Shown here piece by piece: positions 2,143-60,539 of a stretch of 64,000 nt of DNA. The stretch spans positions 61,070,001 through 61,134,000 of the forward strand of contig OX597828.1 in assembly GCA_951406725.2 (NCBI GenBank), in the 5' to 3' direction. The translations under genes were made by a program, and so were the position numbers. Below the pieces are notes generated by a model, which searched no databases, was not told the origin of the DNA, and saw only the letters and a list, made by a program, of their open reading frames with translations. Each line of letters starts with the position of its first letter. Position 1 is the stretch's first letter. This stretch comes from Octopus vulgaris (Eukaryota).

Positions 2143-3109
2143 CGTACTTTGTGTGACTCCAAAACGCCTTCTCAACAGCTCCTACCGACCTGTTTCTTTA
2201 TTATAGCCACAATGGTCCCTACCGACTTCCGTCTCAACCAATACGCTACTCTTTATAATAGTTCGGCTAGTCCATTTTTCCAGTTCCCCAGGGGTGTCAA
2301 TGACTCTCGCCACATCTCCCCCTTTGAGATTGACTTCCGTTGGAAGTTAATAATATTTTTATTTAATTATTTTACTTTCATTACATCTCCCTTTTTGAAA
2401 TTTTTCTCCTAGGGAAGTTTAATATCTGTTCCATTAAGGCACTGCTTCCAACCATTCTGTTTGTTTCCTCTTTCTTGTGCTGCTATGCCTTGGTTCGATT
2501 TCTTGTGGCGTCGGAATATCAAAGGTGTCATAGAGCACTTCCATGGGTATCTCTTTTCTTTTTTCCGTATATCTACTTTTTAGCTGGTTTAAATATCTTT
2601 TGTGTTCTCAATTTTCGCCTTTTATCATGTCATTTTGCCTATTCTTTTTTCTTACTACTCCGTCTTCCCAACTTTGTTCACCATTTTTATATAATTTGAA
2701 AAACATCTTGTCACCGATATTAAAATGCTTTGTCGTATTTCTAGTGTTTTCCCTATTTTTCTTCTTACTGGTAGCAGCTAGTCAAATATTGACTTTATTT
2801 TTCGAGCAAACATTAGTTCCGCAGGCGACTTGCCTGAAACAGTGTTTGGGTTTGGTGTTATCCTATAAAACCTCAAAAATTGTGTCAATGCTGCGTCATC
2901 AACTAGTTTGTTTCTTGATTTCTTTAATGCGCTTTTAAATGTATCCCTGAACCTTTCCGCTTGCCCATTTGATGTTGGGTGATACGGAGGAGTAGGAAGG
3001 AGTAAGCGACTTCATTTTAGAAATTCCTGGGTGTCCAGTGTAGAATTCTCTTGAGGTCTCTGGGTGAGACTTGGAGTTAACTTGTACAAATGTAAAGCAA
3101 AAGTCAAAC

Positions 3110-44529: not shown

Positions 44530-46100
44530 TTCTGTTCTTGATATGTATTTGAGTGATAATACAGTTTGAAATAATGTATTTCTTTGTTGGAGTATGGTCC
44601 AATGTATTTGTTGCATTGTATGTCTGTTGATATTCATCAGAAGCTTAACTACGATTTATTTAATATTGTGGATTTCTTTATCACGAGTTTCATTTGGGGA
44701 AAGAATTTAAATGCTCTTCTAAGTAGTGATTTTACCACTGACATTTTGTAGTTATGTTGGCATTTGCCATCGCTATACTGATACATTCTTTGTATAAGCT
44801 GATGTAATGTTTCTATTACTTTTTATCTGAATATTTATGTCTAGAACCAGAGTCGTATTTGTATTGTTTTAAAACTTAAGTTTTAAAACTTAGTTGTTCT
44901 GTAGATCCCTCATTAGTTTCTCGATGTCTTCTGGTGTGTACATGGCAAGTAGTTTATCGCCTCAGCATATTGTGTATATTAAATGTTTGTGTTTAAGTAT
45001 CATTTTGTTTTCTATGGTAGCCAAGTAGAATGTGGCAAATGTAGGTGTTGTGGAACTACTCTATCTTTATCAGAGGATTCCAGTATAATCCATGGGTTGG
45101 AGAGGTGCAGCTGAAGTGTACGAGAGTAGAAAGTTCAGGTAGAGAATCCAGTGTAGAAGGTGTAAAAGTTCGTTGGGTAATGAGAGGAGACAGGATCGGC
45201 ATAGCTTGCCATGTGGTCAGCAAAACGGTATTCCCATTTTGCGATTTACTAGCAGTTTTTAAAATTGTTCTTGATATGAATGTCTTTGTTTTGGAGCGTT
45301 TGTATACGTTATCAAATATTATTTTGATTGATTTTGCTACAGGAACATTGGCAAAAGGATTTTCTGTATCTAGGATAGAAGTAATACACTTTTCGTTTTG
45401 GTACAGTAATTCGCCGGCATATTTTTCGTGTTATCTATTTGTTTGATGATAATAGGTGTATTTATCTAGGATATTATGAGTAGGAAAGGGTTGTTTTGTT
45501 TATGAAATTTGCCTCGAGAATCTTCTTCGATGTGACAAAAGTACGGGGATCCTCTCTGTGCATTTATCACGATAATTATTTTACTTGATAGGTGTTGTCT
45601 TTTGGTATCTTTATAAACTTGTTTCTGCATTTAAACAAGTTGTTGAATTGTCTAATGTATTCATCCCTTTTCATTATTACGAACACTTTGCTTTTGTTGA
45701 CGGTGCATATTTTTATATGGCCGTTATATTTTAATTCATGTACGGTTTGCTTGAATCGCTTGTTGAGTATTTGGTTATTCTTTTGTAGGTATCGATTTTT
45801 ATTGCATTAACCTCGAAATAAATCTTAGAATTTACCAGTGACTTTCTTAATGTTTGTATCCATCAGATATTCTAACTTTTAACATAGTCGTTTAATTTCA
45901 ACTTGTTTCTTCTCTTAGTCGCATTTTGATGGCAGATGGAATTTGGTATCAAGAGTGAGGAGCGTGGCTTGATCTGTGTTATGTGCATGTTATGATACGC
46001 TAACAAATTTATCGTCTTTTATGTGCAACATGATTTTTCTTTTTTTTTTTTTTTACCTAACTTCATTTCTTTGTCAATTGGTCTAGATAGTGCTGTCTGC
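44530..46100 (-). mobile_element. Second, more degraded Penelope-like RT fragment
   Basis: Minus-strand remnants such as GKFHKQNNPF, PTFATFYLATIENK and LVLDINI resemble PLE RT motifs. Followed by a repeat (46360-46510) similar to 42540-42660. Confidence 0.5.
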
Positions 46101-50465: not shown

Positions 50466-50561
<96 letters not shown>

Positions 50562-50599
50562 TCTATTCTATTCTATTCTATCTATCTACATACATACTG

Positions 50600-52250
50600 T
50601 TGAGCGAGAGTCACTGACACGCCTGGTGGATTGGAAGAATGGACTAGCCGAACTCTTATAAAGAGTCGTGGTCGATAGTAGTCAGAGACGAAGGCTGGAG
50701 TTCTACTTTAGATTTTACGTCGGCTGAGGAAGAGATGGTTAAAATTGTGAAGAGACTAGACGAAGTAATGAAGGTGAAGAATTATGCAGAGGCAGTGAAA
50801 GATAAAAGCGAAGACGTGTGTCTGGAGGAGTGAAGTAGATTTAAAGAAATGCTTAGAAAGGAGAGGAACGACGTAAAAGTGCACCCCCAAGAAGTTTTAA
50901 AAGAAAAAAGAAAAAAGAAAAAAAAAAAACATTATTTACAGGACGTACTCAGCAATAAGGAAAATTGAAATCATGTCGACTGCTCAAATCGAAAAGGCAT
51001 TAAAACTAATCTGGCAAGGGATTTCTTACCTTGTCAGAGGAAGAAAGTTTGGAACGGTGGAGGTACAGTTCCGTAAGGTAGCTACTGATAGGCTGCACAC
51101 GGCAACACCCTTAAAAATGGATGAAGGGGTGCACCCATATAACTTGGGAGACGTGCTTCCAGGGTTAGGATAGAAGATACACCTCCAGAAATTGATGTAG
51201 CCTGGCTAGCAGCTGCCATACTGCTGGGCACGGAAGAGATGGTAGTAGTTCTCCAGGCCACCAGATTGCTCCATAAGAACTGGCAAGGGCAGAACCAAGA
51301 TATAATAATCCATGCAGCCCCGGAGGCCTTGAAAACATGGTCGAGACCATCACAGTCGAAGAGATGACACTCAGGATCAGAGTAGAAGGCAGGATCCCGC
51401 GATGCTATAAATGTGGTCTGAAAGGTCATATTATAGTAGATTGTCTTTCGCTACTCGTGAGGACTAAAGGGAAACCCGAGAGCAGGAAGGAAATTGCAAC
51501 TTCACCGATGGAAACCAGTAGCAGCGCCGAGGAAGAGGAGGTGAACGAGGAGAAGAACGGACGGGAAACGGCTGGAAAAAAAGAAGGAAGGGAAGCAAAA
51601 AAGCACACTTTGTAAATGATGATCCCATCCCACACCCACCTGACTCCCACTCACATCCATTCTACCCCAACCTTCCCCTACAGACACCAACCCTTCTCCA
51701 TGCTCCATCTGACACAAAGACAAGCACAAGCACAATGGAGCCCCAAACTTTCCCACCCTTATCTTGTGAGAAAAAAATATGTTATACTGTCCAACGGACA
51801 AAATGGAAAAATTTATAATGAGATAGAGTCATGGGACAGAGCGATAAAAGTGAATACGACAGAAGTTAGGGGATTGCTCGAGTACTTTCATTGTGTGGTG
51901 GCAGACCCTGAGTATATTTTGAGAGTAAAAAAATTATGAGCGGGACTTTGAGTGGTGGGTCAAGAAAATGGTCACCAGCACAATACCAGAACGGGTAAGC
52001 TATCTTGAACTTTTAAAGAAATTTAACATAGACATTCTTCGAAAAGATGAAAGTAAACAAATAGTTAACAAATAATGTTTTAAAAAGTTGTATTAACAGG
52101 TTTAATGAAGTCGCTCGGAGGTGGGGGCCGAACGGCTTCATTTCATTTATCATTTTATTTAATTCATCCTTTCCATTTGTACTCTTTTCTGTTCCCACCA
52201 TGTGATGCCCCTTCTGTGTTAGGCCCTGTGTGGCCAATAAAAGAAGGAGA
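50600..52250 (+). mobile_element. ORF1-only (Gag-like RRM/CCHC) retroelement, tandem unit 1, decayed
   Basis: Broken ORF about 50735-51939: ...STAQIEKALKLIWQGISYLVRGRKFGTVEVQF...RIPRCYKCGLKGHIIVDC. 3' hairpin 52104-52142, AATAAA 52236-52241. No RT or endonuclease. Confidence 0.8.
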
Positions 52251-54167
52251 GCGTTTTGGTAGTAGTTCGTAGTTTGGTCACGTTTCTATTCCGTCAACGT
52301 CGTAGACGCCGTCATACCAAGGTTCCGAGTTAGCGTAAGTTGCTCGTTCGTTTCATGCAATTGTAACGTTATTCTGTTGTGTGTTTTTCTACACTCTGTT
52401 TTTTTGCTGCCTTGCGGCAGTACTGTTAGCGTTTTCCCTCGGTTGAAGGGGAAAGCACTGTGAGTGCTTAGTTCGTCCCCTATGACCTCGTTCGAGGAGG
52501 ACCTGAGAAGAAGTCTGAAGAGGATTGACAAAGTAATGGAAGAAAGGAAGAAAATGAACTTTGCAGCTGCAAGTTGGTGATAAGACAGAAGAAATCTGTA
52601 TCAACAAAAAGGAAATGCAAAAATACAAAGAAATGTTGAAGTGAGAAGGACACGAAGTGAAGGTGTCACCCCCCCCCCCCCGCCCCCAGCAACAATACAA
52701 TATTTATCAAGGAAATAAGTATCACATACAGAACATAAAACCCGAAATCCAACAAGGTGGAGATAGTGGCAAAAGAACAAATGGAAAAGGCACTAAGACC
52801 CATCTGGTTGGATACTACCTTCCTTGCCAGAGGATCGACGTTTGCGACGGTGGAGGTACGGTTTACCAGCAAAGCGATAGCCAGATGTCATTCTGCGACC
52901 TCTATGAAGACAGACGAGGTAGTCATTCTACCTTTCCATCTGGGAAGTTGTGTGTCCAGGGTAATGGTGAATGGAATACCTCCGGAGGTGGACGTAAACT
53001 GGATAAAAGCGGCAATTTTAATGGGCTTCCAGGAAGGGATTACAATCCTACAAGCGACAAAGGTAACCTGCGAAGAATTGGCTAGGACAGACACTGGAAA
53101 TAATAATCCAGAGGACTTGGGAGAAATGGTCAACACCATAGCGGTGGGAGACGAGGTGAGGCTTGGGATTGTGGTGGAAGACAAGAGGCCGAGGTGCTAC
53201 AACTGTGTACAATTGGGACACATAAGGGCCAAGTGCTTTCCCACTCCCTGTAGAAGGACCAAAAGAAGCCCCACTGGAGACCGTGTCTCTAACAGTCGCA
53301 ACATCAAGAATTGAGAGGATGGAAACAAAAACTCAGGAGTACAAAAAGAAAAATCAACAGAATGGACAAAGGTGGGCAAGAAGAAGAGGAAAAGAAGAAA
53401 CTAGCAAACCAGCGAGGAAGAACCCCAACCCATTCCGGTCCCTACCCTCCCGCTCCACACCCTTCCCCCTGCAGACACCAGCCCTCTTCTTAACCCACCA
53501 GACGGGAACACAAATAATGCAAACACACAAGAGCCACAAATTTTCAATGCCCCCACCCAGTGCAAAGGTTTCAGTGAGAAAAGAAGTTGAGATGGTGAAC
53601 TCTGATATAGAGGTGGACACGAAAGATTGTGAGGGGTTAAACCCGAGTTTAAGGTGTTCCCTCCTGTTGATGGAGAATTATCACAAGTTAAAAGACAAGT
53701 ACAGGAGATACGTCTACTCCACGGGAAGAGACGTCGACCTGAACTCGTTACAGCCTAAGGTAAGATTGAATGAAATTTACCCAGGGTCAATAAAAATGAA
53801 CGGTAGTTGTAACCTTAAAGTTTTGACTCAATTTTGAACAGTGATTATCATAGTTTTAACGACATAAGTAATGTTTTGTAACTGTGTATAAAAAGGAGCA
53901 TGTAGTTGCGTATAATAGGATTCAACATAAAACGGTAATTGTTATCATAGTATTTTGACTGTGTAGATGATGTTTTAGATGGAAAAAAAGATAAAAAAGA
54001 AGCAATCTAATGTGTTGTAAAAAAAGATTCAATGAAACTGCTCGGTCGCGCGGTCGAGTAACGTTCATTTTAGTTTTCCTTTTTCAACTCCATCTTTTTC
54101 ATTCGTTCCCTCTCCCCACTTTGTCTGTCCTTGTACCGTCCCCTGTGTGGCAAATAAAGAAAAAAGC
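52251..54167 (+). mobile_element. ORF1-only (Gag-like RRM/CCHC) retroelement, tandem unit 2, decayed
   Basis: Starts at GCGTTTTGGTAG. Broken ORF from ATG 52482 to about 53837: AKEQMEKALRPIWLDTTFLARGSTFATVEVRF...RPRCYNCVQLGHIRAKC. Hairpin 54031-54069, AATAAA 54153-54158. Confidence 0.82.
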
Positions 54168-55727
54168 GCGTTTTGGTAGACCAGTGTGGTGTGTTCGCTT
54201 CCGTGTTACAGTCTGTAATTATCTGAAGTTTATTGTTGAATTGCCGTTCATTTTGTTGCAGATTTTCACTTTTGAGATTACCTTTGTTTAAAAACTGTTA
54301 ATGTCTTGCAACGCATTGTTAGCCTTCACAGGCTGGTTTTCTGTTAGCTTCTCCGTTTGGGAGTGAAGCGTTTACATTTTGTGTAAGGTGTCCTACACAA
54401 AATGGATGACGACACATTTTACGTGTTCTAGGTGTTCTGGGAGAGCGGGGATAAGGCGGACTATATAAGTGATTCGGAAGAAAGTACGGATGATTATGCG
54501 GCCACGGCACGAAGAAGATGAAACGTTGCAACATCAAGTCTGAAGCAATCAAGAATTTCCAGTCATTTCTTCAGGAGGAGAGAGACAACGTGAGGCTAAC
54601 CCCGCCTCCACCAAGGAGGTGATAGAAAAAATGAAGAGAAAACGATTGTTTATAGGACGCTATCTTTGAAGACCAGAAAAATAGAGATTGCGTCAATAGA
54701 GGGAATTGAAAAGGCATTAAAGCCTATTATGTATGAATTGGTGTACGTTAAGCGCGGAAGAAAGTTTGGAACGGTGGAGGTGCAGTTTGTGTAGAAGAGA
54801 GCGATACCAAGATGAACTCGGTGACCACCCTGCAGACAAGCGGAATAGCTCTTTTGCCGTCATATTTCGGCAAAAGAATGACGAAAATAATGATAAACGG
54901 GTTCGGCCTGGAAATCAAACCGATGTGGCTCCTGACAGCGGCCTTCGCCAACATAAAAGAAGAGGTGACACTATTACAGTTGGAAGAAAAAAGTACCCAG
55001 AACTGGTGTGGAAAGGGCCTAAGAGCAACAATCCAGGCCACACCAACAGATATTGATAGCATACCGGAGTTCATCATCCTTCTGGATGATACAAGAGTCG
55101 CTGTTCAGAGCAGAATACCAAAGTGCTTCGGGTGTGGGCAAAAGGGACACATAAGAAAAATGTATCCCCAGGGCCATCAACCTGAAACATAGGGAGAAAG
55201 CCAGACAGAGGCCAATATGCAGCAGCAAAGAATGGAAGAGGAGGAAAATCAACAAGAGGAGACGGTGGAAGGAGAGACAGTCAGGACGGAAGAAGTAACA
55301 CTGTTGACAACTTCTACAAAGTGACAGTGAATGGCAAGTGGCTGGGAGGAAGAGGAAAAACAAAATTATTTGTTTCCCCCCTCCCGCAAACAAAAAAGCC
55401 AAAAATTACAAGATTTTACAAACAAGAACACACATGAACATTTAACAGAAACAAACAAAGAGAATAAAAAAAGAAAAACAAAAGAAAACTGAGGTGACTT
55501 CACCAAGCAAAGTGAAAAAGAAAGACTGGCAATTTATGTTAGATTTTTAAATAAAATGTTCAATGATGTCGCCTGAGTCGTGGGGCACGGGTGACCATCA
55601 TTTCATCTTTTCATTTATTAATCAGAGATTTGCTCATTCGATTTTTTCTTTTTCTTTTCGGCCCCACATATAATGTCCTGTATCATCCCCTCTTTGTTGG
55701 TCCTATGTGGATGATAAAAAAATGAGA
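54168..55727 (+). mobile_element. ORF1-only (Gag-like RRM/CCHC) retroelement, tandem unit 3, decayed
   Basis: Starts at GCGTTTTGGTAG. Broken ORF: KTIVYRTLSLKTRKIEIASIEGIEKALKPIMYELVYVKRGRKFGTVEVQF...RIPKCFGCGQKGHIRKMY. Hairpin 55562-55602, then an A-rich end followed by another GCGTTTTGGTAG. Confidence 0.8.
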
Positions 55728-56570
55728 GCGTTTTGGTAGTCTTGCGAAGTACGCGTGTGAACACGTTGATTAAACATCCGCTACATGATTTATCTGTACC
55801 GACTTGTCACTGGATATAAAACATACATACATACACGCGCACGCACGCACATACATACATGCAATGTATGTATGTATGTATCTCGTAACTAGAACACGAA
55901 AGCGCTTTCCCAGTACTTAATTTTTCTAAAAGGAAAGAATTAGTATTTTGAGATGATAATTTCTAAAGTATGTATGTATGTATGTATGTATGTATGTATG
56001 TATGTATGTATGTATGTATGTATGTATGTATGTATGTATGTATGTATGTATGTATGTATGTATGTATGTATGTATGTATGTATGTATGCACGCATAATAA
56101 ATTACTGAAAAAAGTTTTTTGTGTTCTAGTTATGAAATGCATGCATGTCGTAACTAGGACACAAAAGCGTTTTTTCAGTACTTTTGCTAGAAGGAAAGAA
56201 TTGATATTACTGAGATGGTAATTTTTACAATTTAATTGTATTATAGATGATATCGGTTAAGAATTTGATAAGCAACACTTTAATTACATTCAAAACAATA
56301 TTGTTTCCTGTTAAAAGTCTCAGAAACATGTTTCATAAAACTTTGATACTCATTCTTTTCCCGATTCCTGGGAGCTTAAACTCTTGTCCTAACACATTCA
56401 AGAGAGAAATATTTTCTTTGTTCTTTGAATTTTAGCAGTATGTGTTATGTTTTTCATTTTTAAAAGAATTTATTCCTTCATCCACATTATTTACATTTGA
56501 CGGATATACCCTCCAGCATTTATTTCGAACCTGGGTTCTCATTCCTAAGGTATTTTTCGATGTTATTATC

Positions 56571-57055: not shown

Positions 57056-57148
57056 TGTATTACTCCTTTATCGTTTTAAAATTATTTTTATGAAGTTTTA
57101 CTTAACTCCAAAATGCAAATTTTCATTTTACATTTTTTTTTCTTGCAG

Positions 57149-58191
57149 ATAATACTGAAAACACCGATAAAAAGACACAACCTCAAAGCAGATTAGTCGA
57201 AAAAACTCTACGGAAACGAAAATTGGTCTTCGACGAAGAACATTTTCAAGATGCATTCCTTCGCTGTATCATCTGTCGAGATGTATATAACGATACTAAC
57301 AAAGCCCCCAAATCTTTACCATGTCAACATTGCTTCTGCCTCAACTGTTTTCTGGAAATGTTCCGCGTGGAAGGCGAGTATCGACAGTCCTTGACTTCGG
57401 CTTTCAGAGGCATGCCACGTGCAGTAAAGATTCAATGTCCGACTTGCAGGGAAAGCATTATTGCCTCTGAGGATGACCTCCGTCGACTTCCAAATCAAAA
57501 CAGTATCTTAGAGCTTCTGAAATTCGTTGAACAAACAGGCATCACTGACATTTCCTACTGCTCCAAACACCAACTACAACCGATCAACTTTTTCTGTGAG
57601 TTGTGTTCTGTAGCTGTCTGTAGTGATTGTACAGTTCTCGACCACAAGGAAATAAACGGTCATAACGTGATGAGCATAGATGAAGCCTTGAAAAAATACA
57701 CACCAGTTATTAACGACTCTATTGAAGATATGGAAATGCAAAAACAAAAATATCGTGAGAAGCGACTGCAGATTCTTCAGCGAATGGAAGATGTAAATAA
57801 AATGGAAAAGCGTGTATCAGCAGAAATTAAAGAAGCATTTCAATCTTTCCGAAATGCTATAATAGAACGTGAACGCAATATCACTTCCATGGCTGAACAA
57901 GAAGCAAGCAGAAAACGAACCCATCTCAGTGAAAATCTGCGTCAGATAACGGAAAAAGAGGAAGATATGACAGAGCGAATAAAAATTTTAAACGCAGCCA
58001 AAGTTGAAAAAGATATTCCATATATGTTCTCTATGTACAGTGCTGTGCAGGATTCATTAAATGACAACATTGAACTGCCTCATCGAATGGATGACGGATT
58101 TGATCTGTCTTTTCATTATAAAACAGAGAAGTTAGATACAGTTACTTGGGACCTGAAAGAATTTGGTTTTCTGACAATCGAATCCTCATAA
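57149..58191 (+). CDS. TRIM/RBCC E3 ubiquitin ligase, paralog 2; terminal coding exon
   Basis: The frame is open from the acceptor tttttttttcttgcag|AT (AG at 57147-57148, phase 1) to TAA 58189-58191. RING CIIC...CQHCFCLNC...CPTC, B-box CSKHQLQPINFFCELCSVAVCSDCTVLDH, coiled-coil. Colinear with paralog 1. No in-frame ATG before the RING, so an upstream exon is needed. Confidence 0.92.
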
Positions 58192-59860: not shown

Positions 59861-60300
59861 GTAGTAAGGCGGCAAGCTGGCAGAAACGTTAGCACGCTGG
59901 GCGAAATGCTTAGCGGTATTTCGTCTGCTGCTACGTTCTGAGTTCAAATTCCGCCGAGGTCGACTTTGCCTTTCATCCTTTCGGTGTCGATAAATTAAGT
60001 ACCAGTTACACACTGGGGTCGATATAAAAGACTTAATCCGTTTGTCTGTCCTTGTTTGTCCTCTCTGTGTTTAGCCCCTTGTGGGTAGTAAAGAAATAGG
60101 TATTTCGTCTTAGCAGTATTTCGTCTGCCGCTACGTTCTGAGTTCAAATTCCGCCGAGGTCGAATTTGCCTTTCATCCTTTCGGGGTCGATTAAATAAGG
60201 ATCAGTTACGCACTGGGGTCGATATAATCGACTTAATCCGTTTGTCTGTCCTTGTTTGTCCTCTCTGTGTTTAGCCCCTTGTGGGTGGTAAAGAAATAGG
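59397..60300 (+). mobile_element. Tandem cluster of four SINE family B copies (GGCGGCGAGCTGGCAGAA...GAGTTCAAATTCCGCCGAGGTCGAC...)
   Basis: Copies start at about 59397, 59619, 59866 and 60100 (5'-truncated), mostly separated by (ATT)n. Two different 3' tails are present. Confidence 0.9.
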
Positions 60301-60539
60301 CATTCACTCGAGCTAAGACCACCATTCTTACCTCTCTCTCTCCCTCCCTCTCTGAGGAACTTGAAAAAGTCGATGAAGGGGCTGGTTGAAACGGAAAATA
60401 ACCCTTAGTCCTTCCGCTGCGTTTATTAACCAATGTATTTCGCCAGAGTCACGTTCCAGTTTGTGTGCATGAACAGCGTACAGAATATTATTTAATATGT
60501 AAGTGACTTTGAAGGCTGTAAGCTTGAAGAATCGTAGAA

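Follow-up and report, generated by a model that had tools for sequence, protein, structure and literature searches.

Recognition of a 3′ stem-loop by the ORF2 protein of a long interspersed element (LINE; ORF, open reading frame) has been demonstrated for zebrafish L2 elements (PMC4176376) and proposed for a plant L1 lineage (PMC3747384), and an initial stringency of the L1/Tx1 lineage, relaxed at a later stage, stands as an open proposal in the same two papers. Here we analyse a 64,000-nt stretch of the Octopus vulgaris genome (GenBank assembly GCA_951406725.2, contig OX597828.1, positions 61,070,001 to 61,134,000 of the forward strand; 'the window' hereafter), in which three decayed Tx1-derived units with ORF1 as their only reading frame each carry a hairpin, P1, in the 3′ untranslated region (UTR). 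Tx1-clade LINEs are relatives of human L1. We find that the P1 stem covaries across long-separated ORF1-only lineages and that its loop likely pairs with a C-run further downstream, ahead of a terminal stem-loop, P3.

Like the tails of stringent LINEs (ZfL2-1, ZfL2-2 and plant L1), these tails contain a conserved stem-loop in the 3′ UTR, variable in its stem and constant in its loop, and they are shared with dependent elements. Unlike those tails, they belong to the Tx1 clade and have two stem-loops, the upstream one 95–160 nt from the end; P1 likely engages in long-range pairing and is absent from a dependent short interspersed element (SINE), which shares P3. The avian R2 protein binds a pseudoknot–hinge–stem that is needed for insertion, a fold shown for avian and turtle R2 (PMC12180492). 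As in the A-clade R2 3′ UTRs of that account, a predicted pseudoknot is followed in Tx1 by a hinge and a 3′ stem by the priming site. The R2 fold described there is compact (65 nt resolved), was established by cryo-electron microscopy and rescue mutants, and belongs to an element of the restriction-like endonuclease type, whereas the Tx1 fold is a prediction with a 50–110-nt loop, and the likeness is one of layout.

Non-autonomous LINEs with ORF1 have been described as HeT-A, HAL1 and Ag-Sponge, from the Jockey, L1 and CR1 clades (PMC5786205). The window units likewise retain ORF1 and the 3′ end and lack ORF2, but they derive from Tx1 and have a fixed insertion site in a long terminal repeat (LTR). 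A fixed site inside another repeat is a trait of target-specific Tx1 families (Tx1L in Tx1D, Tx1-8_Crp and Tx1-4_AMi in LTR retrotransposons, Kibi and Koshi in microsatellites; PMC4494074), and a (TC)n-targeting family also occurs in this genome. The main text of PMC4494074 contains neither 'stem' nor 'secondary structure', and there the link to SINEU is made through shared targets, not through a structured tail. L1-Tx1 is reported among the recently active families in an octopus (PMC13282606), and PMC4758252 gives general background on SINE domains. A literature search for a Tx1 3′ UTR structure or pseudoknot, with most subscription journals, Repbase and supplements outside its scope, found none.

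The P1 stem covaries across ORF1-only lineages

The three units and their hairpins lie as follows.

50691–52246, + strand: unit 1, 5′-truncated, decayed ORF1-only Tx1 derivative with approximate ends (ORF1 pieces, no ORF2 match)
52263–54164, + strand: unit 2, near full-length, decayed ORF1-only Tx1 derivative
54180–55723, + strand: unit 3, decayed ORF1-only Tx1 derivative
52104–52142, + strand: hairpin P1 of unit 1, with a G-run loop (folding, alignments)
54031–54069, + strand: hairpin P1 of unit 2, with a mutated loop and the pseudoknot pairing lost in this copy (p 0.83)
55562–55602, + strand: hairpin P1 of unit 3 (folding, alignment)

Each unit has a broken ORF with one zinc knuckle (zf-CCHC, under the Pfam curated cut-off), and the ORF1 proteins are only about 29–49% identical over their matched pieces; no ORF2 match was found in the window for the three units. 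The hairpins of the original prediction were recovered letter for letter, each with the U-rich tract claimed directly 3′ of it and with the element end about 105, 95 and 121 nt away in units 1, 2 and 3. Folded alone, they reached −17.2, −10.9 and −20.6 kcal/mol (z −3.3, −1.3 and −3.8), and dinucleotide shuffles folded equally well in 0/200, 22/200 and 0/200 cases, so the unit 2 hairpin by itself is within chance. No hairpin stood out within its 146-nt context (z −0.8 to 0.0).

Relatives were sampled by protein, DNA and pattern searches, and the counts are lower bounds. The ORF1 query gave 12,127 first-look candidates in the 2.8-Gb genome. We took 89 loci from two 150-row lists, with ORF1 similarity as the sole criterion: 22 lead into an endonuclease, 45 end in a 3′ tail with no endonuclease before it, and the other 22 show neither. 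Far from being missing in most family members, P1 was present by eye with both arms in 39 of the 45 tails; the remaining six comprise two SINE tails, one tail interrupted by a microsatellite and three with deletions. ORF1-only copies group separately from complete elements: mapped on a 58-row tree of ORF1, their label requires 2 changes compared with 16.5 when shuffled. These units thus form long-lived lineages and are not single deleted copies. Complete families have a homologous hairpin soon after the ORF2 stop, and a model built from 25 UTRs, mostly ORF1-only, matches the 3′ UTR region in most of 20 complete-family loci, with a score that comes partly from the shared tail.

In alignment A5, with 49 rows of which 46 come from ORF1-selected loci, pairing in P1 stands at 83.5%, and both sides have changed in 10 of its 15 pairs; a 25-row alignment gave the same picture for P1 pairing. 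The whole-structure score on A5 was reached by 0/500 shuffles, which ignore relatedness, and slid partners were only 33–46% paired. The compensatory pair noticed between the units persists in the 49 rows as A-U (14), U-A (12), C-G (7), G-U (5), G-C (2) and U-G (1), and is unpaired in 8. With an R-scape-like tree-null test, the same pair ranks first of 13,518 among 82 copies (about 39 effective) aligned by sequence only; 22 long UTRs were excluded from this alignment, and one misaligned row of complete type, L152, was dropped from a set of 83. Scaling to the 15 pairs proposed gives the top pair an E value of about 0.008. An alignment-free arm swap between 32 groups gave −14.4 kcal/mol for own arms versus −9.3 for foreign arms, and 0/20,000 permutations were as low as the own-arm score; three controls were null (p 0.25–0.49). 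The own arm was the best partner in only 8 of the 32 groups and among the top three in 16.

Some results speak against the reading built on this stem. The tree-aware test over all pairs found no significant pair (best E 6.9), the other 14 of the 15 proposed pairs were individually non-significant in the restricted test, and RNAalifold returned 0 pairs on the mixed alignment A3, a blank that arises because stems of different length misalign.

The hairpin could also be a neutral leftover of a complete ancestor, as the decay of the window copies and the 16.5% of unpaired P1 cells might suggest. Yet pairing survives transversions between units whose ORF1 is as diverged as stated above, and the arm swap is strongly positive while its controls are null; together with the A5 covariation, the arm swap largely refutes this explanation, which we regard as exceedingly improbable. 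The P1 stem is real and under selection, with statistical support that is good but not R-scape-strong. The idea of a selected cis signal is supported, by covariation among ORF1-only lineages and by the homologous hairpin of complete Tx1 LINEs.

A UUCAUU copy further along offers the outer arm of P1 an alternative pairing partner. Six short copies (L003, L013, L052, L057, L087 and L092) start in or just after the P1 3′ arm, as if copying had halted there. A selenocysteine insertion sequence (SECIS), a hammerhead and other ribozymes were ruled out by inspection and by the blank Rfam result: a scan of 50500–56000 at E ≤ 5 gave 10 weak matches, with zero on the hairpins, whether to SECIS, ribozyme, small nuclear RNA or other curated models, and the outer AUGA pairs Watson–Crick with UCAU.

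The P1 loop has a predicted distal partner

The P1 loop holds a conserved G-run while the stem varies, and a C-run lies 3′ of the U-rich tract.

52193–52199, + strand: unit 1 distal C-run, with which the P1 loop is predicted to pair as a pseudoknot (p 0.13)
54114–54119, + strand: distal C-run of unit 2
55660–55667, + strand: distal C-run of unit 3, predicted pseudoknot partner (p 0.013)

Within the window, unit 3 supports loop–distal pairing, unit 1 is compatible with it and unit 2 has lost it. The unit 2 hairpin stands as originally described, but its GCGC loop looks like post-insertion decay of the GUGGGG loop of its relatives. Across 34 rows, each one natural copy per group (groups related, loops hand-picked, 2 of 36 rows not found), the duplex between loop and downstream sequence beat dinucleotide shuffles (p ≤ 0.05) in 16, with about 1.7 expected. 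All nine GGGGUC-type young complete families did so, with 7–12 predicted pairs. The best loop partner starts 46–84 nt before the end in 32 of the 34 rows, across a linker of 50–110 nt. Loop and partner letters change in step between lineages: GUGGGG/CCCCAC in ORF1-only elements, GGGGUC/GACCCC in young complete families and GGGUUUU/AAAACCC in (TTA)n-inserted families, the last as read directly in single copies. Swaps of U-A to A-U and of U-A to C-G occur in two single copies, L117 and L056. The G-run loop of P1 thus likely pairs with the distal C-run as a pseudoknot, to judge from these duplex predictions. This pairing, like P3, was overlooked in the original prediction.

A simpler structure would consist of the hairpin only: the G-run would be recognized as a word in single-stranded form, and the presence of a complementary C-run in a tail rich in pyrimidines would be a coincidence. 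In keeping with this, 18 of the 34 rows fail to beat shuffles, both motifs are mostly invariant within lineages, which leaves few independent compensations, and the C-run can pair instead with the terminal GUGG. Other points also tell against a pseudoknot: a candidate partner family (below) lacks a good distal partner (p 0.69), and local pairing is available to its G-run; the loop of the young family L133 carries a U-to-A change with no matching change in the partner; the loops of units 2 and 3 can zip into a tetraloop instead; and the cross-family loop–distal test is weak (p 0.008), with distal windows partly picked by motif. Against coincidence stand the nine out of nine young complete families and the letters flanking the runs, which co-change between lineages (UC/GA versus UUUU/AAAA); we consider the hairpin-only structure improbable.

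The older (TTA)n-inserted Tx1 families (L265–L292) have a longer, branched 3′ UTR fold with loop and partner words of their own. The linker after P1 (for example, window 52143–52192) is rich in YCAY repeats, with 4.0 per copy compared with 1.1 in mononucleotide shuffles (81 copies), a density that we take to resemble Nova-type binding clusters.

A terminal stem-loop is shared with a SINE

52212–52242, + strand: P3 of unit 1, with a GGCC/GGCC upper stem and a lower stem that includes the AAUAAA-like end
55690–55722, + strand: P3 of unit 3, with a GUCC/GGAU upper stem
59936–60298, + strand: two tandem SINE copies, the last ~62 nt of which (60035–60098 and 60234–60298) are a Tx1-type tail, P3 without P1

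P3 closes the element with a variable upper stem of 3–4 bp (GGCC/GGCC, GCCC/GGGU or GUCC/GGAU) on a lower stem that includes AAUAAAG. It is 69% paired in A5, with double changes in 5 of 10 pairs. An A-run of ≥8 was found at 0 of 83 element/target junctions, indicating that the start of copying is set by a fixed position in the element rather than by a poly(A) tail.

The final ~62 nt of the Tx1 tail also form the end of an abundant SINE, which keeps P3 and lacks both P1 and the C-run. Among 39 matches to the SINE body, 27 have the Tx1 tail by eye (17 by a strict pattern), 9 carry a different tail and 3 are cut short. Because the SINE keeps only this piece, P1 is unlikely to be the minimal capture signal. 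Its body has a GGGGUC helix of its own at the distance from the end of the Tx1 pseudoknot helix, also present in the 9 of 39 matches with other tails; this may be mimicry of the pseudoknot helix. The SINE is of tRNA type (window 59909–60304) and frequently integrates, at one site, within other copies of itself, giving tandems.

A proposed handle for a partner reverse transcriptase

We propose that P1 is the upstream part of a 3′ UTR fold, conserved in the Tx1 LINEs of this genome, that, with the pseudoknot and P3, serves as a handle for a partner reverse transcriptase (RT), an explanation that we hold with about equal measures of confidence and doubt. The pseudoknot would form in the RNA, loop out the U-rich linker of 50–110 nt and dock P1 beside P3 in a pseudoknot–hinge–stem layout. 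The ORF2 protein of a complete Tx1 would bind this fold and initiate reverse transcription at a fixed position immediately past the AAUAAAGAAA end. The minimal signal would lie in P3, and P1 and the pseudoknot would raise the capture of long, translated RNAs. On this proposal, ORF1-only lineages retain the fold because ORF2 must be borrowed. Capture by a partner RT, which had been suggested for the hairpin, is supported only in part: the tail-sharing SINE shows P1 to be dispensable for at least one partner, which counts against the handle as a whole. A wider version is rather doubtful: Tx1 LINEs would recognize RNA by a long-range pseudoknot docked on a terminal stem-loop, in a layout that arose independently of R2; the entire fold would persist in ORF1-only parasites, and the SINE would mimic the pseudoknot helix by a local hairpin with identical sequence and distance from the end.

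P1 and the pseudoknot might instead influence what becomes of the polymerase II transcript (its stability, export, translation or coating by ORF1), with the RT reading P3 only. All ORF-bearing groups examined keep P1, the SINE (presumed to be transcribed by polymerase III and untranslated) keeps P3 only, and the YCAY-rich linker resembles a protein-binding tract, as such a role would have it. It accounts less readily for a distal strand that is nearly fixed from the priming end despite the 50–110-nt range of the linker, and the SINE GGGGUC helix could replace the pseudoknot helix, even though it also occurs with other tails. We regard a role in transcript life as a tentative possibility and as the main rival of the RT handle.

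The stack lies in a split LTR

50598–50690, + strand: left half of a solo LTR with a TATA-like box at 50657, host target of the stack (BLAST to one empty copy)
52247–52262, + strand: target-site duplication at the boundary of units 1 and 2 (same word as flanks the single inserts L101 and L108)
54165–54179, + strand: target-site duplication at the boundary of units 2 and 3
55724–55821, + strand: right half of the solo LTR, starting with the target word

The repeated GAGCGTTTTGGT between units is a duplicated target site and lies outside the unit. Twenty loci match the stretch that follows unit 3. In 12 of them a ~190-bp repeat runs through uninterrupted, 6 have a Tx1-type 3′ end at this point, and the other 2 are the window itself and one truncated copy. 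Behind one copy of the repeat (L073) lies a gag-like ORF containing zinc knuckles, which identifies the repeat as an LTR. The single inserts L101 and L108 have the target word on both sides as a 13–15-bp duplication. Thus, GAGCGTTTTGGTAG between the units is the insertion target, and 50598–55821 is a solo LTR split by three insertions at the same site, ~30 nt past the TATA-like box. An element end or promoter at GAGCGTTTTGGTAG was ruled out, as 12 of the 20 loci carry it in an uninterrupted LTR. From this position, the Tx1 elements possibly borrow the LTR promoter. ORF1-only and complete Tx1 elements use the same LTR site (window 50598–55821, L101, L106, L108, L294 and L301), and a further fragment of the LTR lies at window 2246–2314 (− strand).

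Relatives of unit 1 use another insertion site, within a SINE. Eight close ones (L047, L052, L053, L177, L193, L197, L211 and L232) have this SINE target and an extra palindromic piece after P3, and tail variant and target may go together in this group.

Many of the highest-ranking relatives are LINEs in complete form that encode an endonuclease, RT and zf-RVT and are inserted in (TC)n. In one (L035), Pfam finds an ORF1 with a CCHC knuckle and an ORF2 with an apurinic-like endonuclease, RT and zf-RVT. Complete relatives insert sequence-specifically, at (TC)n, SINE and LTR sites, with target-site duplication. Assignment of the relatives to the Tx1 clade fits their domain order, their targeting and family traits. 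One complete family has the tail closest to those of the window units and, among its 14 copies with intact 3′ ends, 2 sit at this LTR site; it is a candidate partner of these units. Young complete Tx1 elements with an open ORF2 (~1,132 aa) form head-to-tail arrays with a period of ~5.3 kb, as at L170 (G000:C30:10445300-10452000), with rows on contigs C22, C27 and C30. Contigs of 4 sequencing runs on a young family showed no listed stem variant, and contigs cannot show RNA ends; two metagenome scans found no Tx1 ORF2 relatives.

Elsewhere in the window, an exon of a RING/B-box (TRIM-like) gene lies at 57106–58191, ~1.3 kb downstream of the stack, and a weak RT-like fragment at 45056–45430 (− strand; Pfam RVT_1 E 0.056) has no match to the Tx1 ORF2 query used.

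Discussion

The R2 pseudoknot is already in use in targeted insertion tools, and site-specific Tx1 enzymes with a known template signal would matter for such tools. The fold described here names the pieces to mutate, and young, intact families are available as material. A defined, covarying Tx1 tail fold with three classes of user (complete elements, ORF1-only elements and a SINE) makes the proposal of a lineage first stringent and then relaxed testable.

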